A DNA stretch of 64,000 nucleotides from an uncultured bacterium (GCA_963740635.1 CAVUEQ010000003.1:161350-225349), one strand, 5' to 3'; positions 120-60,078 are shown, numbered from the stretch's first letter. Program-made: numbers and translations. The notes: a model not told the origin generated them from the sequence alone.

Positions 120-980
120 CTAGCCGACGGAGAGGGCGTTCATGGCGTTGACGATTTCCTTGATGCGGTCGTCGGCCTCGCCGCGGCGGGCGCGGTTGTA
201 GGCCATCACGAGCTCAACCTGGAGCTCGCGGGCGCGCTTTTTGGCGGCGGACATGGCGGTGAAGCGGGAGGCGTACTGCGCCAGGCGCGACTCGAGGATG
301 ACCTGCGAGAGCGCGATTTCCATCATGACCGATTCGAGGTAGCGGACGACGTCGTCGACGCTCGGCTCAAACAGGTAGTCGCGGGGGCTGATGATATCGC
401 CGGATTTGGCGGCTTCGGCGCCGGTGGCCAGCGAGCGCACGCGGCCGAGCAGGTCGATGCGGCCGACCTCCTGGACGCTCAGCGACACGTAGCGCTGGAA
501 CCAAACCGTGGGCTGCTTGTAGCCCAGGAGCTCGTCGACGATCGGGGAGACGTCGATGGCCTGGTCGATGTCGGGGAGGCGGAAGTAGCGCTTGATTTTG
601 GCGTGGTTCTGGACGAATTGGGTGGCGCCGTGCGCGCCGATGACGAGCAGGTCGGTGGTATTTGGGTCGATGTTGTCGAGCACGGTGCGGACGATGCGCT
701 GGTCGATGTCGCCGGACAGGCCGCCTTCGGAGGTGAGGGCCAGGAATACGTTGGGTTTGTCGCGCTTGATGGCGCTGTTGCCGGTGAGGCGGTCGTTGGG
801 GTCCACGCGCAGCTGGGTGTAGATTTGCCAGAGCTCGGCGAAGAAGGCCTGGCTGCGGGAGACGCGGTCTTTGATCTTGCCGATGCGCATGGAGGCAATC
901 GATTCGAAAATGCCGGTGAGCTCGGATACGGTGCCGACCTGGCCGGCCTCTTTCGCAACTGACAGCGAGCGGCTACTCAT
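120..980 (-). CDS. atpG: F1 ATP synthase gamma subunit
   Basis: 286-aa ORF with typical gamma N- and C-terminal helices (IASMRIGKI..., ...EIVNAMNAL). ATGA overlap with the atpA stop. Confidence 0.9.
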   Translation of the reverse strand: MSSRSLSVAKEAGQVGTVSELTGIFESIASMRIGKIKDRVSRSQAFFAELWQIYTQLRVDPNDRLTGNSAIKRDKPNVFLALTSEGGLSGDIDQRIVRTVLDNIDPNTTDLLVIGAHGATQFVQNHAKIKRYFRLPDIDQAIDVSPIVDELLGYKQPTVWFQRYVSLSVQEVGRIDLLGRVRSLATGAEAAKSGDIISPRDYLFEPSVDDVVRYLESVMMEIALSQVILESRLAQYASRFTAMSAAKKRARELQVELVMAYNRARRGEADDRIKEIVNAMNALSVG

Positions 981-2548
981 GGCTTGGACTCCGCGGTGGC
1001 TGCCGGGACGGCCGGCGCCGGAGCGGGCGCTGCGGCAGGCGGGGCCGCAGGGACGGCGGCGGCCGGGGGTGCGGCCGGGGGTTGGCCGGGCGGTGCACCC
1101 GGGGGCGGGGCAGCGGGCGCGGGCGGGGCGGCTGCTTGGACCGTGACCTCGGCGAGCAGCTTAGTGATGGTCCCCTCCCAGTCGCTATCGGCTGTCATAG
1201 TGGGCGCCAACTCTTTGGCCTTGCGCTTGAGGCTGTCGATGTTGATGGTGATTTTGCCCTCGGTTTTCATGACGGTGCCGAGGATGAGGTCTTGCTCGTT
1301 GCTGGAGTAAATCATGTCGGGCGGCTGCTTCAGAGCCTCGTAAATTTTCTTGCCCAATTCGAGGTCGGCGCGGGACTCGATGGCGAGTTCGGAGCCGAAG
1401 TGCGAGAATTCGGCGGCCTGGCGGTAGGCGGCCAGTTTCTTGAACAGCGCGGCCGTGAGCTTCTTTTGGCGCTTGTCCTGGCCCACGCCACCCACGCGGG
1501 ACACCGACAAGCCCACCGAGATGGCCGGCCGGATGCCGGCGCGGAAGGCCTCGGTGTCGAAGATGAGCTGGCCGTCGGTGATGGACATGATGGAGGTCGG
1601 CAGAGGGGCGGTGATGTCGTTGTTGGGGGTGAGCACGACCGGTATGGAGGCCAGGGAGGCGCCGTTACTTTCGAGCCGGCCGGCGCGCTCGAGCAGGCTG
1701 GAGTGGGCGTAGAACATGTCGCCCGGGAAGCTGGCGCGGCCCGGGGCCACCTTGAGTAAGAGTGAGAGTTCGCGGTAGACCTTGGCGTGGTTAGAGAGGT
1801 CGTCGTAGATGATGACGCCGTCTTTGCCACTGGTCCAGTAATGCTCGGCGATGGTGGCGCCGATGTAGGGCGCCAGGTAGCTCTGGGTGAGGGAGTCGAA
1901 AACGGAGGCCACGATGACGGTGCAGTAACTCATGGCGCCGGTTTCATTGAGCTTGGCGATGAGGCGGTCGACATCGGCCTTGCGCTTGGAGATGAGCACC
2001 TGGACCACAAAGCGGCCGGTGTCTTTTTGGGCCAGGGTGAGCTGCATGGTAAAGGCCGACTTGCCGGTCTTGTTGTCGCCGAGCACGGCAATGCGCTGGC
2101 CTTTCACGAGCGGGAAGAGCTGGTCGGCGATGGCGACGCCGGTGGGCAGCGCCTCGGTGAGGGCACGGCGCTCGATGATGCCGGGCGCCACCTTGAAGAC
2201 CGAATCGTAGTGGCTAAACGTGATGGGGCCCTTGCCGTCGAGCGGGGCGCCCGTGACGCTGATGACCCGGCCCATGAGGGCATCCCCCACCCCGGTCACG
2301 AGCTCTTCGGATTCGATGACGGCCAGCGTCCCGATGGGAATAGTTTCGGCCGACATGTTGAGCACCATGACGGTTTCGGCGCGCACCTCGCGCACAATCC
2401 CCTGGTGGCCGTTGTCGAAATATATGAGGGCGTTGACCGCCACACTCCCGAGGCCCTGCACCGTCACCAGAAAGCGGTCGACGCCTACGACTTCGCCGGT
2501 GGGGCGGCCGTCCGCCACGAGTTTGGCGAATTTGGGGTTATCAAACAC
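977..2548 (-). CDS. atpA: F1 ATP synthase alpha subunit with a Pro/Ala-rich C-terminal tail of about 55 aa
   Basis: Conserved alpha core with P-loop GDNKTGKS. The C-terminus is APPAPAAPPPGAPPGQPPAAPP... Confidence 0.95.
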   Translation of the reverse strand: MFDNPKFAKLVADGRPTGEVVGVDRFLVTVQGLGSVAVNALIYFDNGHQGIVREVRAETVMVLNMSAETIPIGTLAVIESEELVTGVGDALMGRVISVTGAPLDGKGPITFSHYDSVFKVAPGIIERRALTEALPTGVAIADQLFPLVKGQRIAVLGDNKTGKSAFTMQLTLAQKDTGRFVVQVLISKRKADVDRLIAKLNETGAMSYCTVIVASVFDSLTQSYLAPYIGATIAEHYWTSGKDGVIIYDDLSNHAKVYRELSLLLKVAPGRASFPGDMFYAHSSLLERAGRLESNGASLASIPVVLTPNNDITAPLPTSIMSITDGQLIFDTEAFRAGIRPAISVGLSVSRVGGVGQDKRQKKLTAALFKKLAAYRQAAEFSHFGSELAIESRADLELGKKIYEALKQPPDMIYSSNEQDLILGTVMKTEGKITINIDSLKRKAKELAPTMTADSDWEGTITKLLAEVTVQAAAPPAPAAPPPGAPPGQPPAAPPAAAVPAAPPAAAPAPAPAVPAATAESKP

Positions 2549-3128
2549 GCTTCAATATCTCCGCTAGCTTGGCGCGGCCCGCTACCAGCTGCTGCTTCCA
2601 GGTATAGTCAAACACGCGGTTGGGCGTGCGCACAACCAAGCCGCCGCCCAGGTTACGGTCGGCCACAAAGGACACCAGGAGATGGGGCGTAACATTAGTG
2701 CGGAACCAACTCACCAGAGCTTCGCGCTGCGGACGGTTGGGCAAGGCGGCCAGCATGAGGTGGACTTCGGGGAGTTTGAGGTGGCGGAGGTGCTCGAGCA
2801 GGGCATCGAGAGACTCGAGCGTGGCTGGCTTGCCGGCCAGCCAGGCCTCGATCACGAGTACGGTCTCGGCGGAGTGGCCGGGTTCGTCTTTGGCGTGAGC
2901 GCCAACGGTTTTGCGGATCTGGTTTTGACGGACCCAGTCGAGGTAAAACTGGATGTCGTAGATGACCGACTCAAGCAACGCGGGGCTGTAGACGGCCGGT
3001 GGAAGATCGAATTCTGGGGCGGGCTGGGGCTCGCCGGCGGCCGGGGGGGCCGGGGCCGGCTGGGGCGGCTGGGGCGGCTGGGCCGGCTGGGCCGGCTGCG
3101 ACTGAGGCTGGGGGGTCTCAGACGCCAT
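2541..3128 (-). CDS. atpH: ATP synthase delta (OSCP)-like subunit with a Pro/Gln-rich N-terminal tail
   Basis: The C-terminal part is OSCP-like (NLGGGLVVRTPNRVFDYT). It lies between b and alpha. The N-terminus is QPQSQPAQPAQPPQPPQPAP. Confidence 0.6.
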   Translation of the reverse strand: MASETPQPQSQPAQPAQPPQPPQPAPAPPAAGEPQPAPEFDLPPAVYSPALLESVIYDIQFYLDWVRQNQIRKTVGAHAKDEPGHSAETVLVIEAWLAGKPATLESLDALLEHLRHLKLPEVHLMLAALPNRPQREALVSWFRTNVTPHLLVSFVADRNLGGGLVVRTPNRVFDYTWKQQLVAGRAKLAEILKRV

Positions 3129-3711
3129 TGAGCAGGTCCTTCCGGATTTCTTCCTTGTGCTTTTCGAGGCTGGTCAGAATGAATTGCATTTGGGCGCCGA
3201 GATCCACGCCGCTGCCGAGCGACTCCGAGATGTAGCTGGAGACAACGTCGCCGATTTTGGCGTCGAATTTGTCGGCCAGGTGCTTTTTCTCTCCCGCCAG
3301 TTCCGCCTCCATGCCCTCCCGCAATTCGATGCGCTGGTGCTCGACTGCTTGGTGGATTTGCTCCATCGCCTGGGTTGCTACCTGCCGCACTTCTTCGAGC
3401 GTTTTCTGGTAGGCTTCGAGCTCCTCCTCGATCACCTGGGTGGTGAGGCGCGAGACCTGCTCGCTGAGACGGGTGGAGGTGGCCTTGAGGTCGGTGCCGA
3501 AGGTCTGGGTGGCCTCGCCGATCTTGGCTTCGTAGGCAGCTTTGAGCTTGGCCTCGAGCTCGGCCGCGGTGGGCTCGGTGACCCCCACGGGTTTGGTCTT
3601 GGCGGCGGTGGCCGCGGCCTTCCCGGCCCGGCTGAGTTGCAGGCCCTGGACGATTACTACCACCACCAGGACCAAAACGACGGCTGCTAATATGATAATC
3701 TGCACGTTCAC
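3118..3711 (-). CDS. atpF: ATP synthase b-like subunit (one N-terminal TM plus a long coiled coil)
   Basis: GTG start in a GTGA overlap with the upstream gene. TM helix IIILAAVVLVLVVVVIV followed by a charged helical region. Its position in the operon supports the call. Confidence 0.55.
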   Translation of the reverse strand: MNVQIIILAAVVLVLVVVVIVQGLQLSRAGKAAATAAKTKPVGVTEPTAAELEAKLKAAYEAKIGEATQTFGTDLKATSTRLSEQVSRLTTQVIEEELEAYQKTLEEVRQVATQAMEQIHQAVEHQRIELREGMEAELAGEKKHLADKFDAKIGDVVSSYISESLGSGVDLGAQMQFILTSLEKHKEEIRKDLLNGV

Positions 3712-4529
3712 CTCGCTATCACCAGATACATTGATACGGCTGTGACGGCTAGAATCACCATCGCGAAGGCACCGATGGTGAGCATGCCTTGGAGCACACC
3801 CTTTTTCGACAACGGATTGCGGCCGATGGAGATGATGCTGTTGCGGACCGCCGAGTACAGCAAAACACTAATGCTAATAATGGCCACAATGAGTATCGCC
3901 CCGGCAATAATAATGCGGATTGGCGATACGGCCTTACCGGCCAGGGTGTTGGACAAGTTTTGGAGCCAGTTGGGTACCACATACTGCTGTTTGCCGTTGG
4001 TGGCCGTGTAGCTGGAGACCGCCACAACCACCGGGATTTGGCCGATGGCAACCTCTTTTTTGCCGGTGCCGTCGTCGATACTGCGCTTGGTGACGTTGTC
4101 GGACCCGGCGTTGAAATCGGCCTGGGCCGTGCCGATGACACGGGTGCTCGAGGCGCCGACTTTTTGGCCGACGCCGGCGATGGACGACACCGAAATGTAG
4201 TCGCCCACGTGGATATCGCCGCCGGAGGTACTCACTAGCACGTCGGCGCTGCCGCTAACCGCTACCTGGACCTGGCCGCTGCCGCTGCCGGACAGCGAGA
4301 TGGAGGCCGCTGTGGGCGCTACCACCACGCCAAACAGGCGCCCGGCGTTGGTGAGGTCGGCCGCCACCACAGTGCCGCTGGATTTGGGATCAAGCGCCAC
4401 CAAGCTGCCGGTAGCTATCGGCGACGTGGTGGCGTAGCCCTGCGACAGGCTGGCGCTAGCGGGCGCGGCCGCGAACAGCGCCAGCGCGGCGGCGGCCGCA
4501 AGCCCCTTGATTCTGTGCCGTAAGATCAC
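3708..4529 (-). CDS. Secreted-domain protein with a C-terminal two-helix hairpin, sitting in the atpE position
   Basis: Signal peptide ends ...APASA/SL. A Gly/Ser/Val-rich domain of about 195 aa follows. The C-terminus is two TM helices joined by the loop SIGRNPLSKKG. Translationally coupled to atpF. Confidence 0.8.
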   Translation of the reverse strand: MILRHRIKGLAAAAALALFAAAPASASLSQGYATTSPIATGSLVALDPKSSGTVVAADLTNAGRLFGVVVAPTAASISLSGSGSGQVQVAVSGSADVLVSTSGGDIHVGDYISVSSIAGVGQKVGASSTRVIGTAQADFNAGSDNVTKRSIDDGTGKKEVAIGQIPVVVAVSSYTATNGKQQYVVPNWLQNLSNTLAGKAVSPIRIIIAGAILIVAIISISVLLYSAVRNSIISIGRNPLSKKGVLQGMLTIGAFAMVILAVTAVSMYLVIAR

Positions 4530-14592: not shown

Positions 14593-14862
14593 ATGAAGAA
14601 GTGGTCACAGAAGGTTACGGAAGGGAGCGATGCGCTTGATCTGGAAGAGGGCGTGTTTACTTGGAATGACCCGAGGCGGATTGCCGAATCGCTCAAGCGG
14701 TCGGCAGATGTGAGCGAGCGACGCAAGGGGACGCCGTACCAGTCGGCGATGTCGATGCTGAATTTCTACATTAACCGGGCGGGGCATACTCTGCCGGACG
14801 AGCACAGGCGCACGCTCGAGGCGGCCAAAGTGGAGCTGCGGCGGGCGTTTGGCCGGGGGTGA
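14593..14862 (+). CDS. DUF3175-like protein
   Basis: KGTPYQSAMSMLNFYINRAG is the signature I associate with DUF3175. Confidence 0.7.
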   Translation: MKKWSQKVTEGSDALDLEEGVFTWNDPRRIAESLKRSADVSERRKGTPYQSAMSMLNFYINRAGHTLPDEHRRTLEAAKVELRRAFGRG

Positions 14863-14981
14863 CGGCTACTGCCCAGGAGCCATCCAGCTATTACGGCTCA
14901 ATATCCGGGCTAAGACTCGCTCGGAGGGAGTCGAGTTCGGTATTTGTATGGTATAATAACCTTCTACAGATAGGGGAGAAT

Positions 14982-15581
14982 ATGCCAAACCGGCGCCGGC
15001 GCTTTATTGATGGCAACTATTACCACGTGTTTGGGCGCGGCAACCACAAGGACGTGGTGTTTCGGGAGGCGCCCGACCGCGTGCAGTTCTTAAATAAACT
15101 CGAGAGCTACTGCGACCGGGATGAGCAATCGATAATCGCGTACTGCCTCATGGACAACCACTACCATCTGCTGCTGCGACAGGACGGCGAGCGGCCATTG
15201 TCGCGCACTATGCGGTCACTGCTGCAGGGTTACGCCCAGTATTACAACCGCAAATACGGCACCGTGGGCTCATTGTTTCAGGGGCGGTTCGGCTCGGTGC
15301 TGGTTGACCACCCGCAGCACAATCCGCGGCGCTTGGCCGGCCTCACGCGCTACATCCATCGCAATCCCCTGCCCTTTGCGGACTTTACGAAGTACCAATG
15401 GTCGAGTTACCGCCAGTATGCGACGGGTACGGCCGGGGTGTGCGATACTCAGACGGTGCTCGAGCTCTTCCCCATAAAGGGTAGTTACACCACATTTTGC
15501 GAAAACTATGCTCCCTCCGAGCGAGCCGAGAAGCCGAAAAATTATCGTGTAATAGCCGGCCGGCGCTTGGCCAATGATTGA
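14982..15581 (+). CDS. IS200-like / REP-associated Y1 (HUH) transposase
   Basis: HUH motif NHYHLLL and the catalytic Tyr region RYIHRNPL. TATAAT and SD GGGGAGA lie upstream. Confidence 0.8.
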   Translation: MPNRRRRFIDGNYYHVFGRGNHKDVVFREAPDRVQFLNKLESYCDRDEQSIIAYCLMDNHYHLLLRQDGERPLSRTMRSLLQGYAQYYNRKYGTVGSLFQGRFGSVLVDHPQHNPRRLAGLTRYIHRNPLPFADFTKYQWSSYRQYATGTAGVCDTQTVLELFPIKGSYTTFCENYAPSERAEKPKNYRVIAGRRLAND

Positions 15582-15607: not shown

Positions 15608-16873
15608 CTACACCAGGTGCGCGTAGAGGAGGTCAGTGGGCGCCAGCACCTGATAGCTGACCCCGAGACGGTCGAGGCGGGCAGTGAGAGCGGGGAAATC
15701 AGCGGGGGCGGCGACTTCGATGCCGACCAGGGCGGAGCCGGAGTCTTTGTTGGTTTTCTTGATGTATTCGAAGCGGGTGATGTCGTCGGTGGGGCCGAGG
15801 GCACGGTCTACGAACTGGCGGAGTTGGCCGGGCTTTTGCTGGAATTCGACCAGCAGGTAATGCTTGAGGCCCTCGTGGGCGAGGCTGCGCTCCATGATTT
15901 CGGGGTAGCGCAGGATGTCGTTGTTGCCGCCGGAGACGATGACGACCACGGTTTGGCCGCGGAGTTTAGGGGCGAGCTGGTCGAGGGCGGAGGTGGCCAG
16001 GGCGCCGGCGGGCTCAGTGACGATGCCCTCGTTTTGGTAGAGCTCGATCATGGTGGTGCAGGTTTTGCCCTCGGGGACGAGAACGAGGTCGTCGAGGAGG
16101 TCTTTGGCGATGGCGAAGGTGCGCTCGCCGACGGATTGGACCGCCGCGCCGTCCACGAATTTGTCGATGCGGTCCAGGCGCACCACGCGGCCCTCGCGCA
16201 GGGCGCGGTGCATGGCGGGCGCGCCGGCGGGCTCGGCGCCGAGGAGCTTGAGGTCCGGCAGCTTGGCCTTGAGGTAGGTGCCGAGCCCGGCCGCCAACCC
16301 GCCGCCGCCCACCGGGACCACGACGACGTCCGGGCCGCCAGGCAGGGCCTCGAGGATTTCGCGGCCCACGGTCCCCTGCCCGGCCATCACACGCGGGTCG
16401 TCGAAGGGGTGCACGAACACGGCGCCGGACTTGGCAGTGTGCTCGAGCGCCGCCGCCAGGGAGTCGTCGAAGGTGTGGCCGCTCAAACGCACGTCGGCCC
16501 AGTCGCCGCCGAAGTGCCGGATGCGGCTGATTTTCTGCGGCGGGGTGCCCTCGGGCACATAGATGGCGGTGCGGATTTTGAGAGTGGCGGCGGCCAGCGC
16601 TACGCCCTGCGCGTGGTTGCCGGCGCTGGCGGTGACGGCTCCCCGTTTGCGCTCCTCCGCGCTCAGGCCCTTCATGAGGTTGTAAGCGCCCCGCAATTTG
16701 TAGCTGCGCACCACCTGCTGGTCCTCGTGCTTAAGATAGATTTTGGCATGAAGGCGCTCCGAAAGCCGCTCCGAATATTCGAGCGGGGTGCGCTTTACCA
16801 GGTCGTAAATCTGCCCGGCGGCGGCATCGACGTCAGCGGCGGACAGCAGTTTTGATGTGGTGGCGGTGGGCAT
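15608..16873 (-). CDS. ilvA: Threonine ammonia-lyase (biosynthetic type, one C-terminal regulatory domain)
   Basis: PLP-fold sequence with an ACT-like C-terminus. 421 aa. Confidence 0.95.
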   Translation of the reverse strand: MPTATTSKLLSAADVDAAAGQIYDLVKRTPLEYSERLSERLHAKIYLKHEDQQVVRSYKLRGAYNLMKGLSAEERKRGAVTASAGNHAQGVALAAATLKIRTAIYVPEGTPPQKISRIRHFGGDWADVRLSGHTFDDSLAAALEHTAKSGAVFVHPFDDPRVMAGQGTVGREILEALPGGPDVVVVPVGGGGLAAGLGTYLKAKLPDLKLLGAEPAGAPAMHRALREGRVVRLDRIDKFVDGAAVQSVGERTFAIAKDLLDDLVLVPEGKTCTTMIELYQNEGIVTEPAGALATSALDQLAPKLRGQTVVVIVSGGNNDILRYPEIMERSLAHEGLKHYLLVEFQQKPGQLRQFVDRALGPTDDITRFEYIKKTNKDSGSALVGIEVAAPADFPALTARLDRLGVSYQVLAPTDLLYAHLV

Positions 16874-44693: not shown

Positions 44694-44758
44694 ATAGCAA
44701 CATTATGGCACATTTCGGCCTCGGCCACGTATAATGATTGGGATAAGCGAGAGTGTGA

Positions 44759-45949
44759 ATGCCGCGCAAGAAGATTTCGGAGTATCGGGCCAAAACCATT
44801 TTGTCTGATGTGCTAGGCAGAAAGTACGCCGGCGTGCCGGTTGATGCCGAGGGTAATTATGAGCCCGCACTCGCCTCTTTGGATGAGCATAAGCATTATG
44901 TGGTGAAGGTAGACCAGGGGGTGAAGGGGCGGTTCAAAAAGGGCCTGGTGAAACTGGGGCGGCAAAAGCCCGACCTGGCAGGGGACGTGAAAGAGCTGGC
45001 GGCCAAGGGCTTTCGCTATCTGATAATTGAGGAGCAACTGGGGCACGCCGCGGAAAGCGAGCGGTATCTGGCGTTTGAGCGGACCCGGGTGGGGAATATT
45101 ATCAGCTTCTCGGCGGTGGGCGGGGTGGACGTGGAATCAGCGCCGGGCGAGATAAGGCGGGCGCCGATTGGCCCGGAGGTGGCGGCCCGGGCCAGCGAAG
45201 CGCTGGGCGTGCCGGCGGAGGTACTCGGCGAATTGGCTGAGGCCTTTGACGACAATTATTTCTCGTTTCTTGAGGTGAACCCGCTGGTGGTTGAGAACGG
45301 CCAGGCGGAATTTCTGGACGCGGCGGTGGAGGTGGACTCGGAGGCGGCGTTTTTCGTGGACGGCCGCTGGACGCCGGACGACTTCCGGGTATACGAGGCC
45401 AAGGCGCAGCTGCCGCAGATGGCAGCCGTGGAGGAGCTGGCCAGCCAGAGCCAGGCGTCGTTCCGGCTAGCGGTGCTGAACCCCGAGGGCAGCATCTTCC
45501 TGCTGCTAAGCGGCGGCGGTGCTAGTGTGGTGCTGGCCGACGAAGTGTTTAACCAGGGCATGGGCCGGGCACTGGGCAACTATGGCGAGTACAGCGGCAA
45601 TCCGAATACCGAAGAAACCGTAATTTACACAAGGCAGGTGCTGTCGCTAATGCTAGACTCACCGGCGCCACACAAGGTTCTGGTGATTGCCGGCGGGGTG
45701 GCTAACTTTACCGATGTGCGCGCGACGTTTAAAGGCGTGATTATGGCCCTGCAGGAGGTAGCCGAGAAGATGCGCGCGGCCGGCATCAAGGTGTTTGTGC
45801 GGCGCGGCGGGCCGTTTGAGGCCGACGGCCTGGCGATGATGCGCGACTTTCTGGAACGGGAGGGCCTGCTCGGCGAAGTCAGCGGGCCGGAAATGATGAT
45901 GTCGGAAATAATTCCGCGGGCGCTCAAAGGTCTGGAGGCTGAGGTATGA
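44759..45949 (+). CDS. aclB: ATP-citrate lyase, ATP-grasp (SucC-like) subunit
   Basis: Colinear with the eukaryotic ACLY N-terminus: LEVNPLVV, LLSGGGASVVLAD, NYGEYSGNPNTEET, GGVANFTDVRATFKGV, FVRRGGP. Confidence 0.85.
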   Translation: MPRKKISEYRAKTILSDVLGRKYAGVPVDAEGNYEPALASLDEHKHYVVKVDQGVKGRFKKGLVKLGRQKPDLAGDVKELAAKGFRYLIIEEQLGHAAESERYLAFERTRVGNIISFSAVGGVDVESAPGEIRRAPIGPEVAARASEALGVPAEVLGELAEAFDDNYFSFLEVNPLVVENGQAEFLDAAVEVDSEAAFFVDGRWTPDDFRVYEAKAQLPQMAAVEELASQSQASFRLAVLNPEGSIFLLLSGGGASVVLADEVFNQGMGRALGNYGEYSGNPNTEETVIYTRQVLSLMLDSPAPHKVLVIAGGVANFTDVRATFKGVIMALQEVAEKMRAAGIKVFVRRGGPFEADGLAMMRDFLEREGLLGEVSGPEMMMSEIIPRALKGLEAEV

Positions 45950-47754
45950 GCACTCTGAATATAGCTGCACTGCGAGCGATTGAGCCGGTGATTGTGGCTC
46001 TGGGGAGCTCTAAAGGGATTGTGCAGTCAATTTTGGATTTTGACTATCTGGCGGGCCGTGAACTGCCCTCGGTGGTGGCCGTGGTGGCCACCGGACGCAA
46101 GAGCGAGCGTTACTTCTTCGGCGCTGAGGAAGTGACGATTCCAGTGTACGGCAGCGTGGAGAAGATTCCGGCGCGGCTGCGGTCGAGGATTAACTTGTTT
46201 TTGAACTTGTCGTCGGGGCGGCGAGTGCTTGCGAGCAGCCGGCAGGCGCTGGAGCAGCTGCCGGGCTTGGTGGGCGGAGTGGTGTTTGCCGAGGGACTGC
46301 CGGAGCGGCACGCGCTGATGCTGGCCGAAGAGGCGGCTGCGGCCGGTGTGTGGATCGCGGGCGGTGCGAGCGTGGGCCTGGTGGTGCCGGGCGTGGTGAA
46401 GCTGGGGCCTATAGGGGGTGTGCAGGCGCCGCAGCTAGTGAAATCGAAATTATTTACGCCCGGCTCGGTGGCGGTCGTGAGTTCGAGCGGCGGCATGGTA
46501 AGCGAAATTATCCGCATGGTGGCCACCAGCGGGCACGCACTGAGCTTTTCCCTGGCGATTGGCGGCGAACGGTTTCCGCTGAGCAGCCCGCAGGAGGTGT
46601 TTGCGGCGGCGCAGGCGGACCCCGAGACCAAAGCTATTGTGTACTTCGGTGAACTCGGGGGCTTGGATGAATACGACCTGGCCGAAATGATTGCGAGCGG
46701 GGCCGTGACCAAGCCGGTGGTGGCCTACATTGCGGGCACGGTCGCTGAGCTGTTTGAAACGGCGCCGCAATTTGGCCACGCGAAGGCCATGGCGGCTTCG
46801 GCCGACGAGTCGGCTGCGGCCAAGCGCGAGGCGCTGGCGGCGGCGGGCGCGCAGGCGGCGGCCACCTTCGCCGAGTTTGCGCAGCTGGTGGCCGCGCTGC
46901 CGGGCGCGGTGGAGGCGCCGGACCACGCGGCGGCGCTGAAGCTGCTGGGCTCGCGGCGGGCCGGGCTCATGGTGAGCTCGATCTCGCGTGACGACAGCGA
47001 AGGCGAAGTGGAAGTGCTGGGGCAGAGCCTGCTGGAGCTGGCCGGCAACAATTCGTTTGCGAAGATCGTGATCTCGATGTTTTTGGGGCGCCCGGCGAAG
47101 TCGCCGGAGTTGGAGGCCTTCGTGGATTATGTTTTGCGCGTGCTGGTAGACAACGGCCCGTACCAATCCGGCGTGGTTAACACCATAGTCACAGCCCGCG
47201 CGGGCCGCGACCTGGTTTCGAGCCTGGCGGCCGGCCTGCTCACCATCGGTCCGCGTTTCGGCGGCGCGGTGAACCAGGCGGCGACGACGTGGCTCGAGGG
47301 CGTGACCACCGGCCTGTCCCCCACTGCGCTGGTGGAAACCTACGCCGCCGGCCGGCGCTACATTTCCGGCATCGGCCACCGCAAATACCGCATCGACTCC
47401 CCCGACCCGCGCGTGGCCCGCGTGACCGCCTTTGCCGATGGCCTGGAGCACGCCCGCTTCACCAAATTTGCCCGCGGCGTCGAGCTAGAGACCACCCGCA
47501 AAAAGGGCAACCTCATCCTCAACGTCGACGGCGCCATGGCCGCCGTGCTGCTGGATCTGCTATCCGAAAAAGAGGGCCTGTCCCACGACGAACTAGTTGC
47601 CCTCACTCAAGTCGAATTCTTCAACGCCCTGTTTGTGCTGTCGCGGTCGGTCGGGTTTATGGCCCACTACTTCGACCAAGTGCGCCTCGACGAAGGCCTG
47701 TTCCGCCTCGGCCCGGCCCAGGTTACGCACGTCCGTCCCCTATCTGAGGATTAG
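45946..47754 (+). CDS. aclA: ATP-citrate lyase, CoA-ligase + citrate-synthase-like subunit
   Basis: Phosphohistidine loop QFGHAKA. GPRFGGA and GIGHRKYRIDSPDPR match the ACLY C-terminal domain. 4-nt overlap with aclB. Confidence 0.85.
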   Translation: MSTLNIAALRAIEPVIVALGSSKGIVQSILDFDYLAGRELPSVVAVVATGRKSERYFFGAEEVTIPVYGSVEKIPARLRSRINLFLNLSSGRRVLASSRQALEQLPGLVGGVVFAEGLPERHALMLAEEAAAAGVWIAGGASVGLVVPGVVKLGPIGGVQAPQLVKSKLFTPGSVAVVSSSGGMVSEIIRMVATSGHALSFSLAIGGERFPLSSPQEVFAAAQADPETKAIVYFGELGGLDEYDLAEMIASGAVTKPVVAYIAGTVAELFETAPQFGHAKAMAASADESAAAKREALAAAGAQAAATFAEFAQLVAALPGAVEAPDHAAALKLLGSRRAGLMVSSISRDDSEGEVEVLGQSLLELAGNNSFAKIVISMFLGRPAKSPELEAFVDYVLRVLVDNGPYQSGVVNTIVTARAGRDLVSSLAAGLLTIGPRFGGAVNQAATTWLEGVTTGLSPTALVETYAAGRRYISGIGHRKYRIDSPDPRVARVTAFADGLEHARFTKFARGVELETTRKKGNLILNVDGAMAAVLLDLLSEKEGLSHDELVALTQVEFFNALFVLSRSVGFMAHYFDQVRLDEGLFRLGPAQVTHVRPLSED

Positions 47755-47770: not shown

Positions 47771-48304
47771 ATGTTGAAGTGGTTTGTGAATCATAAATGG
47801 CTGACCGCCGCGATTATAGCCGTGCTGCTGCTGGCGGTGTGGGAGGCGAGCGATAAGTTTTATCCGGCCCAGAATTCGGCCAATCTGCCGGCCAGCGAAC
47901 AGCCGGGCGGGAGCACGGCCACGCCGTCGCCGGGGGCAACCGGTACGCCGGGCGCCGGCACGAACAATGGCGGCGGCGGCAACAAGACGGCAACAGGCGA
48001 AACGGTAGCCACGCCGGACGCATCGGCGTCCAAGTACAAGATGACGATTTCGGGCTCGACTGTGAGCCTGGCGGCGGACGGTACCGCCACCGTGACAGGC
48101 AACATTACCAACAACGAGCAGGCACAACATTCGGCCACTGTGGGGGCGCTATTTTATGACAAAGCCGGCCTGGTCGTGGGCAGCGCGCAAGGTTCTGTGA
48201 GCGACGTGCAGCCGGGCCAGACGCAGGCATTTACGATTACGAGTAGCGGTAAGATCCCGGCGGATTACGCCAAGATGGTCGTGCAGGTGAATTCGATTAG
48301 CTAA
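47771..48304 (+). CDS. Membrane-anchored FxLYD-domain-like protein
   Basis: N-terminal TM, a Gly/Thr/Pro linker, and ALFYDKAG in a C-terminal beta domain. TAGAAT-N6-ATG. Confidence 0.65.
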   Translation: MLKWFVNHKWLTAAIIAVLLLAVWEASDKFYPAQNSANLPASEQPGGSTATPSPGATGTPGAGTNNGGGGNKTATGETVATPDASASKYKMTISGSTVSLAADGTATVTGNITNNEQAQHSATVGALFYDKAGLVVGSAQGSVSDVQPGQTQAFTITSSGKIPADYAKMVVQVNSIS

Positions 48305-48355
48305 ATCGTGATAATTAGATTTAGGGTTTCTATCTGGGTATGTAGTTCTTTATCA

Positions 48356-49239
48356 GGTTCTGTCCACTAAACCGGAACAGCCATACTCTTAAGTAATGTG
48401 AATGGGTCTCGAAATAGTTCAGGGTGGCTCCTCCGTGCCTGAAACTCCTGCAGTATGCCGGACAAGAAGCGCTTCAAGAAGCGGTCGCGGGTTCGGATGA
48501 CAAACCGGTCCAGGCAGCTCCAGACATTCTCGGCCCGGTTGGTTGGCCCGAAGTGCCCCCGGTCATGGTTGCAGACGACGAGTCCGTAGCCGACGTCCTC
48601 GAGCCCCAGATGGGAAGCGTGGGCGTCAGCATGAATGAGGCTGCCGACCTCAGCGTGACGGTCAAGGAAGCCCTCAACGGTATCTTGGGCTACATCCGGA
48701 ATGACCTCTAGTCGCACTTTGTTTGTTTCCCGGTCGACCACCCCCATGACAATAGCTTGGTTGCCATATTTCTGGTGACCCAGGAAGGACTCGTCAATCT
48801 CCAGGAGGCCAGCCAATGGGTCGCCCTCACTGCGGGGCAACCGGGACCGGAGCCGTTCCAGCCACCGCTGCACCGTCGGGTAGCTGAGGCCGGTCGCCAC
48901 CACAATGTCGCCTGGAGAGTGCTTGCCCTGCCAACAGATGACGAGGGCCAGGATCTTGACCCAGGACAGCTTCGAGAACCCGAATCCCAGGTTGCGCTTG
49001 AGGCTCCATTTCCGGCGGCAGGTACCGCACCACAGGTATTTCTCCCGTACAAGTATTGTCTTGTGGCTTTGCCAAGGGCAAACCAGGCCATTGGGATATA
49101 TTTCCCGGACCACCAGCTCGACACACTCCTGGTTATCCCGGGGCAGATTTATTAAGGTATACATTGGAACAAGTCTCCTTGCTTTAAGTTATTGCCGTAA
49201 CTTAAGTGTAGAACTTGTTCCGCTTTAGTTTAGAGAACC
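48356..49239 (-). mobile_element. Intact IS1595-family insertion sequence with a 9-bp target duplication
   Basis: 24-nt imperfect terminal IRs (GGTTCTGTCCACTAAACCGGAACA vs GGTTCTCTAAACTAAAGCGGAACA). Flanked by TCTTTATCA at 48347..48355 and 49240..49248. Confidence 0.85.
48367..49164 (-). CDS. IS1595-family DDE transposase
   Basis: N-terminal Zn-ribbon-like CPW..CGTC and a DDE_Tnp_IS1595-like core (LEIDESF...). Confidence 0.9.
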   Translation of the reverse strand: MYTLINLPRDNQECVELVVREIYPNGLVCPWQSHKTILVREKYLWCGTCRRKWSLKRNLGFGFSKLSWVKILALVICWQGKHSPGDIVVATGLSYPTVQRWLERLRSRLPRSEGDPLAGLLEIDESFLGHQKYGNQAIVMGVVDRETNKVRLEVIPDVAQDTVEGFLDRHAEVGSLIHADAHASHLGLEDVGYGLVVCNHDRGHFGPTNRAENVWSCLDRFVIRTRDRFLKRFLSGILQEFQARRSHPELFRDPFTLLKSMAVPV

Positions 49240-49303
49240 TCTTTATCATTCTATTGACAAAGTAACTGCCCTTACTTTATTATACAAATGATAAAGAGTT
49301 ACA

Positions 49304-50740
49304 ATGATGGACCAGGCCACTTACGATAAGGTGATGATTTATCTACGCACGCAGCTTAGTTCGGCTGTGTCACGCCTTGAGTCGTACACGGTAGATCGGA
49401 ATGGCAAAGAATTGCCACGCAGGCATGCAATATTAACAATCGAAAAGTATATCAACAATTTCGCGACTCAGGATAAGGAACCCCGCTGGGTTGCGATCCC
49501 CGGGTTGAGAGGTTCCGGCAAGACAACGTTGCTAGCTCAGATATATATGGGGCTCAAATGCGCCACCAATCAAAAACTATATGTCTCACTTGATGAAGCT
49601 AAGAGGGTTTTGGGGGTGAGCTTGACGGATATTTTGACCGTGTACGAAGAAATACTTGGCAAAACGTTCGAGAACATAACCACGCCAATATATTTGTTCA
49701 TAGATGAAGTCCAATACGATGATGACTGGGGCGTAGTTCTAAAAAGCCTTTACGATCGCTCAAAAAAGATATTTATACTTTGCACAGGCTCTTCTGCCTT
49801 GGCACTTCGGCTCAACCCAGATGTTTCTCGCAGAATAACTCTTGAGCGGCTCTACCCTCTGTCCTTCACAGAATACATAATGATTAAGCATAACAAGATG
49901 CCCATCAAGGGGCTGGGGGCCGCGATTCGTGACGCCCTCTATAATTCATCAGATGCAGGCGAAGTTCATGCCCGCCTTGCTAGCCTAAAGCGTGACACTA
50001 TGAGGTACTGGTCAAATATTAACCGGCTTGAATTGGATGCTTACTTGAAATATGGGACTCTGCCTTTTACATTGCAGTATTCGCAGGAGCCGTTAATCTA
50101 CGAGCAGATTGAGCAGACTTTAAGTAGCGTAGTAAATAAAGATGTTGCGCAGCTGGGGAAGTTTGACTCGATTACACTCGGGAAGATACAACAAATGCTG
50201 TACGCGCTAGCTAACAACAGCGTTACGAGCCTTGGCACGCTAGGAAAAATGCATTCACTATCAATAAATACAGTAATCGATGCGTTAAACGTGCTAGAAC
50301 GGTCCGAAGTTTTACTCAGAGTTTTCCCTTATGGTGCTGCGGGGACGCATGCAAAAAAACCGTCGAAGTACTTATTTCTTTCGCCTGCATATCGCAATAT
50401 GTTCTTTAATCTTATCGGCTCCACGCAGCCTTACGATCGATACAAAGGACTTCTCTGGGAGGATGCGGTTGGGATGCAGCTACACAGGATGATCGGCGGT
50501 CGCATGGGCTCAGGCTTGCATTACGACAGCAGCGCGGACGGTGCAGATTTCATTGCGACTATCGGCGCTAATAAAATTGCACTAGAGGTTGGTTATGGGA
50601 CAAAGGATTTTCGCCAAGTAGCTGCTACACTTGCCCGTCACGGTGGAGTATATGGACTTTCTGTGTCGAGTTCGCCCTTATACATAAATACAGAAAGAAG
50701 TGCGGTAAAAGTGCCATTTAGCTACTTCCTAATGACCTGA
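49304..50740 (+). CDS. AAA-family ATPase with a DUF4143-like C-terminus
   Basis: Walker A GLRGSGKTTLL, Walker B LFIDEVQ. Lower GC than the flanking genes. Confidence 0.8.
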   Translation: MMDQATYDKVMIYLRTQLSSAVSRLESYTVDRNGKELPRRHAILTIEKYINNFATQDKEPRWVAIPGLRGSGKTTLLAQIYMGLKCATNQKLYVSLDEAKRVLGVSLTDILTVYEEILGKTFENITTPIYLFIDEVQYDDDWGVVLKSLYDRSKKIFILCTGSSALALRLNPDVSRRITLERLYPLSFTEYIMIKHNKMPIKGLGAAIRDALYNSSDAGEVHARLASLKRDTMRYWSNINRLELDAYLKYGTLPFTLQYSQEPLIYEQIEQTLSSVVNKDVAQLGKFDSITLGKIQQMLYALANNSVTSLGTLGKMHSLSINTVIDALNVLERSEVLLRVFPYGAAGTHAKKPSKYLFLSPAYRNMFFNLIGSTQPYDRYKGLLWEDAVGMQLHRMIGGRMGSGLHYDSSADGADFIATIGANKIALEVGYGTKDFRQVAATLARHGGVYGLSVSSSPLYINTERSAVKVPFSYFLMT

Positions 50741-50745
50741 GGTTG

Positions 50746-52572
<1,827 letters not shown>

Positions 52573-52626
52573 GGCGTGATTATCCCATATCAAGTGTTGA
52601 TTGCGAAGTGTAACCCGTTTGAGGGT

Positions 52627-52680
52627 AAAAATAAAGACTGTGGGGCGCCCGGCCCCGGAACCTTGCGGTCCCGGGGGCGC
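52627..52680 (-). terminator. GC-rich hairpin plus a T-tract after the 52728 gene
   Basis: GCGCCCCCGGGACC-GCAA-GGTTCCGGGGCCGGGCGC, then ...TCTTTATTTTT on the minus strand. Confidence 0.7.
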
Positions 52681-52727
52681 GGGCATCCACCCATGCGGGC
52701 CGGTCAGTCAGAACTGGCCCCCGTCGA

Positions 52728-54376: not shown

Positions 54377-55606
54377 TTGAAGCAAAAGCTCGAATATTTG
54401 AACGGCCTGCGGGGGCTGGCGGCGCTGGTGGTGGTGTTTCACCACTTCGCGTACGTGTTTTTGGTGTGGGCCACACGGGGGGCGGGCGCGCATCACTACG
54501 CTGCCGAGGGCGTGATTTATGCCACTCCCCTGCAGCTGCTGGTGGCGGGCAATTTCGCGGTCTGTATATTTTTTATCTTGAGCGGGTTTGTGCTGAGCTA
54601 CGCGTTTTTTCAGACCGGGGCGGTAGCGCAGGTGCAGGGAGCGGCGCTGAAGCGGTACTTCAGGCTGATGCCGCCGATCCTTATGAGCGTGCTGCTGAGT
54701 TGGGCAATCCTGACGCTGGGGCTGCATTGGAACCATGAGGCCGCGGCCATAACGGGCGCGCCGTGGCTGAATAATTTTTGGCCGCGGGCGGTGAGCCTGG
54801 GGGAGGCGCTGCGCTACGGGGCCTGGGATATCCTGGTGGGCAACGGGCAGGCCGGGCTGTTGAATAACGCGCTGTGGACGATGAAGATCGAGTTTTTCGG
54901 GTCAATGCTGGTGTTTGGGTTTTTGGGGCTGTTTGGCAAGCTGCGGCTGCGCTGGATCGCCTATGCGGTGCTGGTGCTGATTACCTGGAAAACGTACTAC
55001 CTGGCGTTTGTGCTGGGGATAGCGCTGTGTGATGTGAGCGCGCGCAAATGGTCGCCCGGACAGCTGGCGTGGCCGGTGGTGGCGGGGCTGGTGGCCGGCG
55101 GGCTGTGGCTGGGGGCGGCGCCGATACCAGGGCCGACGCACACGCTCTACGACGCGGTGGCGTGGCCCGGCGCCGACCGCCAGGTGGTGTTTGTGCTGAC
55201 GCACATCGTGGGCGCGGCGATGGTGCTCGGGGCGCTGCTGTACTCGCCGGTGCTGAAGATGGTGTTCGCCAGCCGGCCGCTGCGATACCTGGGGCGGGTG
55301 TCGTTTTCGATGTACCTGCTGCACGTGCTGGTGCTGGGCTCGTTCGTGTCGTATTTGTTTACGGTGATGAGCATCGGGCATGGGTATCTTACGAGTATGG
55401 TGGTGGCGGGTATCGGGTATTTGGTGATGGTGGTGATTTTGTCAGATATCTTCACGCGGTACGTGGACGAACCGAGCATCCGGCTGGCGTCGGCGGTAGG
55501 CCGGCGGCTGATGCGCGCCCGGAAACCGGCCGCGGCGCCTCCCGAGCCGGTTAAGAAACCTGATATCATAGGGCCAACAGCGAGGGTTAATGCGACCAAT
55601 TCTTAA
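54377..55606 (+). CDS. Acyltransferase family 3 (O-acyltransferase) membrane protein
   Basis: LNGLRGLAALVVVFHH signature. About 10 TM helices. TTG start with SD AGGGGGG. Confidence 0.9.
   Translation: MKQKLEYLNGLRGLAALVVVFHHFAYVFLVWATRGAGAHHYAAEGVIYATPLQLLVAGNFAVCIFFILSGFVLSYAFFQTGAVAQVQGAALKRYFRLMPPILMSVLLSWAILTLGLHWNHEAAAITGAPWLNNFWPRAVSLGEALRYGAWDILVGNGQAGLLNNALWTMKIEFFGSMLVFGFLGLFGKLRLRWIAYAVLVLITWKTYYLAFVLGIALCDVSARKWSPGQLAWPVVAGLVAGGLWLGAAPIPGPTHTLYDAVAWPGADRQVVFVLTHIVGAAMVLGALLYSPVLKMVFASRPLRYLGRVSFSMYLLHVLVLGSFVSYLFTVMSIGHGYLTSMVVAGIGYLVMVVILSDIFTRYVDEPSIRLASAVGRRLMRARKPAAAPPEPVKKPDIIGPTARVNATNS

Positions 55607-57436: not shown

Positions 57437-57440
<4 letters not shown>
55590..57440 (+). 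CDS. Membrane-anchored protein with Ig-like (SbsA_Ig/Big_5-type) repeats and a C-terminal C39-like peptidase domain
   Basis: Repeated P..G..Y...V modules. The C-terminus has SCELASSRMVLGFYG and a His region (IHDGHPVIFWGH). Confidence 0.75.

Positions 57441-60078
<2,638 letters not shown>

Follow-up and report, generated by a model that had tools for sequence, protein, structure and literature searches.

The 64,000-nucleotide stretch of DNA analyzed here (GCA_963740635.1 CAVUEQ010000003.1:161350-225349; hereafter the window), which comes from a tiny-genome Candidatus Saccharimonadia (TM7, Patescibacteria) bacterium, carries two overlapping genes, aclB (positions 44759 to 45949, + strand) and aclA (45946 to 47754, + strand), that are predicted to encode a complete heteromeric ATP-citrate lyase (ACL). 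We favor the view, to which we give a probability of about 0.6, that this is a functional enzyme native to the Saccharimonadia and that it turns scavenged citrate into acetyl-CoA for the acetylation of amino sugars, not for CO2 fixation. Both genes start with ATG, and their products, AclB (396 amino acids, the small subunit) and AclA (602 amino acids, the large subunit), are those reported in a preliminary description of the window. All of the motifs listed there were found in the translations, namely LEVNPLVV, GGGASVV, NYGEYSGNP, ANFTDVRATFKGV and FVRRGGP in the small subunit and QFGHAKA, GPRFGGA and GIGHRKYR in the large one.

Scores against the PDB and NCBIfam place the pair with ACL and not with the succinyl-CoA synthetase (SCS) or citryl-CoA synthetase (CCS) families, which the preliminary description had named beforehand as the alternatives. 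AclB, aligned there by eye with the ACLY N terminus, consists of an ATP-grasp domain (residues 3 to 204) followed by an ACL-specific citrate-binding domain (residues 218 to 390), and it matched the Pfam families Citrate_synth_N and Citrate_bind (PF24948, 83.6 bits against a cutoff of 83; PF16114, 184 bits against a cutoff of 26.8, E value 1.8e-54). Its PDB matches were Methanothrix ACLY-A (6hxi_A, 5e-55), human ACLY (9e-53), Chlorobium AclB (3e-37) and, much more weakly, a citryl-CoA synthetase (4e-11). AclA unites Ligase_CoA and Citrate_synt domains (PF00549, PF13607 and PF00285) in a single 602-residue chain, in agreement with its earlier alignment to the CoA-ligase plus citrate-synthase-like part of the enzyme. 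It matched human ACLY (2e-94, colinear over human residues 502 to 1096), Methanothrix ACLY-B (1e-92) and Chlorobium AclA (2e-56), with weaker matches to SucD proteins (1e-22 or worse), Ccl (2e-19) and CcsA (7e-16). Expressed as bit scores, human ACLY (320) and Methanothrix ACLY (314) stood far above Hydrogenobacter citryl-CoA synthetase (61), citryl-CoA lyase (72) and SucD (about 80 or less).

Succinyl-CoA synthetase, SucCD, was ruled out by NCBIfam scores below the cutoffs (48.9 bits against 375.6 for SucC and 106 against 336 for SucD) and by the additional citrate-synthase-like (CSH) domain, whose fusion to the AclA C terminus is the feature that sets ACL apart from CCS. The Hydrogenobacter CcsAB and Ccl proteins (6hxq, 6hxp) are built from homologous modules and divide the same net reaction between two enzymes, whereas the CoA-ligase subunit of the window pair carries the lyase-like domain as a fusion, next to a partner with a dedicated Citrate_bind domain. 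A CcsAB-plus-Ccl identity was ruled out by this fusion, by the weakness of the 6hxq/6hxp matches (46 to 72 bits versus 190 to 320 bits for ACLs) and by Ccl scores that were also under the cutoff. An AlphaFold (AF2) model of AclA built on a 40-sequence family alignment (A1) had a mean predicted local distance difference test (pLDDT) score of 81; its top Foldseek matches were all ACL large subunits (best match 6hxi_B, 3e-46), and its N-terminal half superposed on human ACLY at 2.0 Å.

The structure and mechanism of ACL are well studied, and we mapped the active-site residues through alignments to human ACLY, using family sets of 117 AclA and 115 AclB sequences. The phospho-His, Glu599, His975/Arg976 and Asp1026 of the human enzyme and the mapped citrate and ATP-grasp residues all have their equivalents in the window pair. 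In AclB, human K58, K64, R66, E118, E201, N203, D216 and G281 to G283 are kept, and these are invariant or nearly so in the 115 homologs. The citrate-contacting residues S308, G309, N346, F347, T348, R378 and R379 are kept as well and are invariant across the 115 members; they correspond to Ser279/Gly280 (45593 to 45598, + strand), to the citrate-binding loop Asn316-Phe317-Thr318 (45704 to 45712, + strand; human Asn346-Phe347-Thr348) and to Arg348/Arg349 (45800 to 45805, + strand). In AclA, the mapped residues, all on the + strand, are Glu116 (46291 to 46293; human Glu599), the phospho-His loop His278-Ala279-Lys280 (46777 to 46785), which reads GHAKA and in which His278 corresponds to human His760 and Lys280 to human Gly762, His478-Arg479 (47377 to 47382; human His975-Arg976, the His being citrate synthase His320), Asp528 (47527 to 47529; human Asp1026, citrate synthase Asp375) and Arg567 (47644 to 47646; human Arg1065). 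E116, H278, H478, D528 and R567 are invariant in A1, and R479 is nearly so, with Lys in some members. The clade-specific GHAKA loop and an identity to characterized ACLs of about 35 to 37% (31 to 34% in Foldseek alignments) leave room for divergence, so that the enzyme might be a CoA-ligase/lyase for another hydroxy- or tricarboxylate; we consider this very unlikely, as every mapped citrate-contacting residue is invariant across the family and the CSH His/Arg/Asp motifs are kept.

The AclA homologs listed among the best 120 of about 2000 matches were 57 to 81% identical, and their source records assign them to Candidatus Saccharimonadia or Saccharimonadales; an identical protein was also found, encoded on a 236-kb contig. 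The 15 GTDB genome loci with homologous aclBA are all Saccharimonadia-type metagenome-assembled genomes (MAGs), two of which are labeled Gammaproteobacteria. These two “uncultured Gammaproteobacteria” contigs (L009 and L014) carry Saccharimonadia-type aclBA at 55 to 56% identity, one of them also with a VanW-family ORF (open reading frame) upstream and MurB directly downstream; because their synteny is the same as that of Saccharimonadia loci, they are probably misbinned or mislabeled. A neighbor-joining (NJ) tree was built from 55 full-length representatives, and in it a clade with a bootstrap of 100/100 unites the Saccharimonadia sequences with five others, one of them from Candidatus Dojkabacteria. 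The Chlorobium/Nitrospinae type was the most distant group, whereas the fused ACLY of eukaryotes and one sequence from a DPANN archaeon lay nearer (NJ distance, 1.65 to Chlorobium versus about 1.3 to eukaryotic ACLY). By sequence, the enzyme belongs to a Patescibacteria-specific, ACLY-like clade, and Chlorobium AclAB is less close to it than are the ACLY of Methanothrix and that of eukaryotes.

The likeness to the aclB-aclA pair of green sulfur bacteria that was noted earlier thus stands in part. The subunit sizes (398 and 610 amino acids in Chlorobium) and the two-gene layout agree with those of Chlorobium limicola/tepidum AclB-AclA (6hxj), but the sequence similarity is much weaker than that to archaeal and eukaryotic ACLY, and the Chlorobium enzyme works inside a complete reductive tricarboxylic acid (rTCA) cycle that has no counterpart here. 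The ACLY-A/ACLY-B of Methanothrix (Methanosaeta) concilii/soehngenii (6hxi, 6znw) shares with the window pair the two-subunit split, similar sizes and the domain order, and it is the best or near-best match in both sequence and fold; Methanothrix is likewise a non-rTCA organism with an ACL. The window enzyme differs from it in identity (31% by Foldseek), in belonging to the separate Patescibacteria clade and in having Asn at the position of human His900. Human and other eukaryotic ACLY (6hxh, 6poe) is colinear over both subunits, with the citrate, ATP-grasp, phospho-His, E599, H975/R976, D1026 and R1065 equivalents kept, and in the cell it serves to provide acetyl-CoA and not to fix CO2; whereas human ACLY is a single chain, the window enzyme is two proteins without the eukaryotic linker, with Lys in place of G762 and Asn in place of H900.

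Two side observations concern the homologs. A separate ACL large-subunit lineage labeled Candidatus Saccharibacteria (the P0144 cluster, with member P0434 of 588 amino acids) is about 35% identical to the window AclA, has the canonical GHAGA loop and, together with P0136 and P0138, falls outside the GHAKA clade, which suggests more than one ACL acquisition in TM7-labeled bins. The homolog search also returned the window AclA itself at 100% but not its own AclB (best match, 78%); the called 396-amino-acid AclB gene is on record on a Logan contig (L016), and the missing match is probably a gap in candidate sampling rather than biology.

In the reaction that we propose, AclB would bind ATP and citrate, AclA His278 would become phosphorylated, and citryl-phosphate and then citryl-CoA would be formed; the latter would be split into acetyl-CoA and oxaloacetate, aided by the C-terminal CSH domain. 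The citrate would be taken from the host or the surroundings, and no rTCA cycle would be served. The acetyl-CoA would go into acetylations, above all the N-acetylation of glucosamine phosphate for UDP-N-acetylglucosamine (UDP-GlcNAc), UDP-N-acetylmuramic acid (UDP-MurNAc) and envelope glycans. We infer the direction of flux, the source and uptake of citrate, the fate of oxaloacetate and the activity of the Asn403/Lys280 form of the enzyme, whereas the homology, domain architecture, residue conservation and clade membership described above, and the purifying selection and gene-neighborhood association described below, are observed. The synthesis of peptidoglycan and envelope glycans needs acetyl-CoA, for N-acetylation of the GlmU or GNA1 type.

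What has been published on the lineage bears on this proposal. A soil Saccharibacterium has as its only tricarboxylic acid (TCA) cycle component a fumarate reductase subunit and is without pyruvate dehydrogenase (PDH) and pyruvate:ferredoxin oxidoreductase (PFOR), and acetyl-CoA metabolism appears to be lacking in six other complete Saccharibacteria genomes (PMC6031116). A 2025 study found aclAB enriched in Saccharimonadia MAGs (3 of 11), and its supplementary tables, in which no TCA KEGG orthology entries (KOs) are listed, are uninformative on this point (PMC12577380). A study from 2026 put forward the idea that Patescibacteria and DPANN with an ACL import citrate that other organisms release and turn it into acetyl-CoA and oxaloacetate (PMC13014828). 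According to a 2022 preprint, there are misannotated citrate-cleavage enzymes in the candidate phyla radiation (CPR) and DPANN. Many of the proteins studied here are labeled “ATP citrate (pro-S)-lyase” by JGI and “ATP citrate lyase citrate-binding domain-containing protein” or “citrate/2-methylcitrate synthase” by NCBI. The suggestion, made when the window was first described, that the enzyme may convert scavenged citrate to acetyl-CoA in a nonautotrophic organism is supported by the Saccharimonadia host, by the reported lack of a TCA cycle, PDH and PFOR in the lineage (PMC6031116) and by the absence of rTCA genes from the window and from the recurrent neighbors of 59 related loci. It is sound but not new, since ACL in Patescibacteria and the uptake of citrate have already been published.

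Further support comes from the genes next to aclBA in relatives. We assembled 59 Patescibacteria-type aclBA loci from genome loci, Pfam-annotated contigs of distant members and a scan that yielded about 60 metagenome loci, and we clustered the neighbors found in 10-kb flanks. About 20 contigs of about 3.5 kb (L082 to L102), with 36 to 40% AclA identity starting near position 1500, were left out of this comparison, since they resemble metatranscriptome-derived transcripts of a single eukaryotic ACLY gene and not loci of bacteria. The aclB and aclA genes were adjacent in essentially all 59 loci. When the 15 genome loci were taken alone, the only recurring neighbors were VanW, LexA and GlmS, in close relatives. 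In the full set, GlmS was the most frequent conserved neighbor (14 to 15 of the 59 loci, as close as 28 bp to aclBA). A ManC-like nucleotidyltransferase lay a median of 337 bp downstream of aclA in 10 of the 59, and directly upstream of aclB, in nine loci and on the same strand in eight of them, was a GNAT of 146 amino acids (GNAT146). A GNAT-like protein of 201 amino acids (GNAT201) was encoded in eight loci, mostly directly upstream, and was paired with GlmM in three. MurB, which scored above the TIGR00179 cutoff, was found directly downstream on the same strand in seven loci; GlmM, above the equivalog cutoff, in four (as close as 15 bp downstream); Ddl, above the NCBIfam cutoff, nearby in four; and Acyl_transf_3 in five loci within about 7 kb and in seven within the 10-kb flanks, adjacent in several. 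GDP-sugar dehydratases and GT4 glycosyltransferases also recurred near aclBA.

At least one of GlmS, GlmM, MurB, GNAT, the ManC-like protein and Acyl_transf_3 was encoded within about 7 kb in 42 of the 59 loci. About eight types of junction were seen, mostly directly adjacent and same-strand, including GNAT146-aclB, GNAT201-aclB, aclA-MurB, aclA-GlmM-GNAT201, aclA-ManC-GlmS, convergent aclA/GlmS, Acyl_transf_3-aclB and aclA/Acyl_transf_3, and this diversity implies that the association has been kept or re-created through many rearrangements. It is because aclBA is repeatedly linked to amino-sugar and acetyltransferase genes, in a lineage reported to be without PDH and PFOR, that we favor a role in acetyl-CoA supply. 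The link between aclBA and the GlmS, GlmM, MurB and GNAT genes was not found in the literature searched. GNAT146 and GNAT201 (examples are L062:7459-7893, 146 amino acids, and L079:2551-3192, about 201 amino acids, with equivalents in 17 loci) could be candidate GlmU-independent glucosamine-phosphate N-acetyltransferases. A bolder proposal, for ACL-bearing Saccharimonadia and related Patescibacteria, would make aclBA and the adjacent GNAT, GlmS, GlmM, MurB and Acyl_transf_3 genes a conserved module and the sole route to acetyl-CoA, coupling host citrate to peptidoglycan and envelope glycans, with the GHAKA loop and a His900-to-Asn change (see below) as functional adaptations; this we regard as possible but doubtful.

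About 55 ORFs across the 64 kb were scanned against Pfam and NCBIfam, which revealed no TCA, rTCA, PFOR, PDH, Pta or AckA genes and no classical citrate synthase, and neither a TCA or rTCA gene nor a catabolic partner nor a citrate carrier was among the recurrent neighbors of the 59 loci. The remark in the preliminary description that no such cycle genes adjoin aclBA is confirmed. ACL is the classical marker of the rTCA cycle, and databases tabulate it under the Arnon-Buchanan cycle, but that it should be the citrate-cleaving step of such a cycle here, in the service of autotrophy or mixotrophy, is hardly credible. The host genome is that of a Saccharimonadia bacterium, the lineage is reported to be without a TCA cycle (PMC6031116), the clade is distant from the Chlorobium/Nitrospinae autotroph type, and no 2-oxoglutarate oxidoreductase (OGOR), fumarate reductase, PFOR, aconitase or isocitrate dehydrogenase (IDH) was found in the 64 kb or among the recurrent neighbors.

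The same neighborhoods bear on whether the enzyme runs backwards, as an ATP-yielding citrate synthase (acetyl-CoA + oxaloacetate + ADP + Pi to citrate + CoA + ATP) that would supply citrate, 2-oxoglutarate, glutamate or energy. In Desulfobacter postgatei, ACL is reported to act in the reverse, ATP-yielding direction. The ACL reaction lies close to equilibrium, and no classical citrate synthase was seen in the window. Human ACLY can make citryl-CoA out of the products of its reaction (PMC10115795). Reverse operation nevertheless seems improbable to us: aconitase and IDH were not found in the window or in the 59 neighborhoods, the genes that recur there are those of acetyl-CoA consumers and not of citrate consumers, and the substrate would be missing, because the lineage is reported to be without a TCA cycle and without a route from pyruvate to acetyl-CoA (PMC6031116). 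As to the oxaloacetate that the cleavage of citrate would yield, one Parcubacteria-labeled clade member has a malic enzyme gene 5 kb upstream of aclBA (L020:3577-4725), the only locus with this arrangement, and its product might drain off the oxaloacetate or malate that stems from ACL.

Two residues of the window AclA call for separate comment. The preliminary description had pointed out that the phospho-His loop reads GHAKA instead of the usual GHAGA, and this proved to be a clade-wide variant, not one specific to the window: of the 117 family members, 114 have Lys at position 280, as do the remaining representatives of the Patescibacteria clade, and parsimony on the family tree calls for a single Lys280-to-Gly reversal. 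A second active-site change, which had not been remarked on before, is Asn403 (codon AAC, 47152 to 47154, + strand), which the alignment to human ACLY puts at the position of His900. This position is His in 108 and Asn in 9 of the 117 family members, and parsimony gives Asn two independent origins, one on the branch of the window and one at the base of an eight-member Saccharimonadia subclade (P0043, P0044, P0080, P0083, P0093, P0096, P0097 and P0113) in which Asn has persisted although distances have grown to about 0.4. A fused 1,023-amino-acid Nitrospinae ACL (P0197) also has Asn there. Neither the clade-wide GHAKA signature nor the recurrent natural His900-to-Asn variant was found in the literature searched.

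A BLASTP comparison with an approximate segment of pig citrate synthase aligned GIGHR with GYGHA and NVDG with NVDA. Ungapped extension of this register puts Asn403 opposite His274, a lead that we take to be consistent with textbook knowledge. The equivalents of H975 and D1026 are present as H478 and D528, and the third residue of the CSH set, H900, is Asn403. In human ACLY, His900 and Arg1065 stabilize CoA in the CSH pocket, and opinions differ on the function of this pocket, held to be either the site of the lyase reaction or an allosteric site for loading (PMC10115795). Given that correspondence, and given that the closest relatives of the window AclA (77 to 81% identical) all have His at position 403, the substitution might alter this one copy of an otherwise normal ACL family, which would then stop at citryl-CoA, cleave it slowly or load CoA differently. 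We attach little weight to this idea: Asn can still donate a hydrogen bond, the eight otherwise conserved members of a diverged subclade have retained it stably, it also occurs in the Nitrospinae enzyme, the catalytic role of the pocket is itself in dispute, and conserved positions of the window AclA are not enriched in substitutions.

This last point was examined at near-invariant columns, defined as family columns in which at least 95% of the sequences agree. The window AclB departs at 0 of 102 such columns and AclA at 1 of 174 (V407Q), ranking 46th of the 117, a pattern of purifying selection from which it follows that the copy is not decaying; the idea that the Asn403 copy is a pseudogene was therefore rejected. 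An identical AclA is encoded in an independent assembly (Logan ERR11718635). The GC contents of aclB (0.62) and aclA (0.65) match that of the window (0.61), unlike the GC content of the insertion next to them, so the genes look native, and their recent horizontal acquisition was rejected as well.

Several points weigh against the proposal that this ACL supplies acetyl-CoA from scavenged citrate. ACL spends one ATP per acetyl-CoA. Neither the window nor the flanks of the relatives' loci yielded a citrate transporter, and the gene absences reported above cover the 64 kb and the flanks, so that aconitase, IDH, Pta/AckA, GlmU and PFOR may lie elsewhere. The locus counts are not phylogenetically independent, and cell wall genes are common in small genomes. 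Among the GNATs, GNAT146 is RimI-like but below the cutoff, with eukaryotic glucosamine-6-phosphate N-acetyltransferases as its longest-coverage PDB matches (about 1e-6), and GNAT201 has marginal matches only. Every other ACL lineage in the table that we compared has GHAG[A/S] or a near variant and no Lys, against the GHAKA of the window, the Methanothrix loop itself being outside that comparison. Asn403, as aligned, would take the place of a His that acts in catalysis in citrate synthase and, in human ACLY, forms part of the wall of the CSH CoA pocket. Finally, the pLDDT of the AclA model falls below 50 at residues 266 to 277 (the phospho-His loop) and 402 to 438, so that the model confirms the overall fold alone and is unusable for judging Asn403 or Lys280.

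Saccharibacteria and other CPR bacteria make peptidoglycan, for which acetyl-CoA is needed, and published reconstructions are without PDH, PFOR or another obvious source. A citrate-fed ACL would, if our proposal is correct, close this gap in the bacteria that carry it and would name citrate as a tie to the host or community. The genes aclA and aclB are routinely used in metagenome surveys as markers of rTCA autotrophy, and a large nonautotrophic Patescibacteria ACL clade inflates such estimates. The natural Lys280 and Asn403 variants are also ready-made tests for the debate on the ACLY mechanism; an active Asn403 enzyme would show that the citrate-synthase-type His is dispensable, which bears on whether the CSH pocket is catalytic or allosteric.

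The layout of the two genes points to joint translation. The stop codon of aclB and the start codon of aclA share 4 nucleotides in an ATGA overlap, and a GAGG ribosome-binding site, read from the sequence, lies a few bases 5' of it (45937 to 45949 for the two together, + strand); this arrangement implies translational coupling. Upstream of aclB, a TATAAT box (44730 to 44735, + strand), a weak and putative promoter element, lies 23 nucleotides 5' of the start codon, inside the 65-nucleotide divergent intergenic gap that aclB has in common with vanW. When the + strand near the aclB start was scanned with the promoter consensus, no complete -35/-10 pair emerged.

The neighbors named in the preliminary description, VanW and an FxLYD-type protein, were both confirmed (PF04294, 1.7e-38; NF038353, 40.1 bits against a cutoff of 23). 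The FxLYD-domain ORF (177 amino acids) belongs to a 3-kb block directly 3' of aclA (47771 to 50740) with a GC content of 0.51 versus 0.61, which also holds an IS1595-family transposase (265 amino acids, - strand) and an AAA_14/DUF4143 ATPase (478 amino acids). No homologs of the ORFs of this block were found in the 15 related genome loci, and for this reason we read it as probably a lineage-specific, mobile insertion that separates glmS from aclA. The glmS gene itself, for glutamine–fructose-6-phosphate aminotransferase, lies at 50746 to 52686 (- strand; Pfam GATase_6/7 and SIS). Beyond it are a gene for an Acyl_transf_3 membrane O-acyltransferase of an acetyl-CoA-dependent family (54377 to 55606, + strand; PF01757, 2.8e-20) and one for a ManC-like sugar-1-phosphate nucleotidyltransferase (57437 to 58471, - strand; NTP_transferase and ManC beta-helix domains, with TIGR01479 at 244 bits, below its cutoff).

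The window also encodes F-type ATPase subunits, ABC transporters, a P-type ATPase, a two-component system, PAS, MASE1 and CNNM proteins, IlvA, a transsulfuration pair, GNATs, Fic, LexA, VanW, a beta-lactamase-fold protein and rhamnose genes. Its pyridoxal phosphate (PLP) enzymes (Cys/Met and IlvA) were considered as consumers of acetyl-CoA or oxaloacetate and rejected, since they look like transsulfuration enzymes and threonine deaminase, with no link to either compound. The IlvA (threonine ammonia-lyase) gene (15608 to 16873, - strand) scores above the NCBIfam cutoff and is adjoined by an IS200-like Y1 transposase ORF (14859 to 15581; PF01797, 3.4e-09). Between 20000 and 28000 the GC content dips to 0.52 to 0.57, and this region, which may be another acquired island, holds genes for an ABC-2 transporter, a cystathionine gamma-synthase/lyase-type enzyme, a CBS/CysK-type PLP enzyme, a GNAT and Fic, together with several ORFs that have no family match. 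At the edge of the window (120 to 2548, - strand) are genes for an F1 ATP synthase gamma subunit (a weak match, below the cutoff) and an alpha/beta-family subunit, and three ORFs upstream of these (2541 to 4529), which have no family match, may encode divergent delta, b and a subunits.

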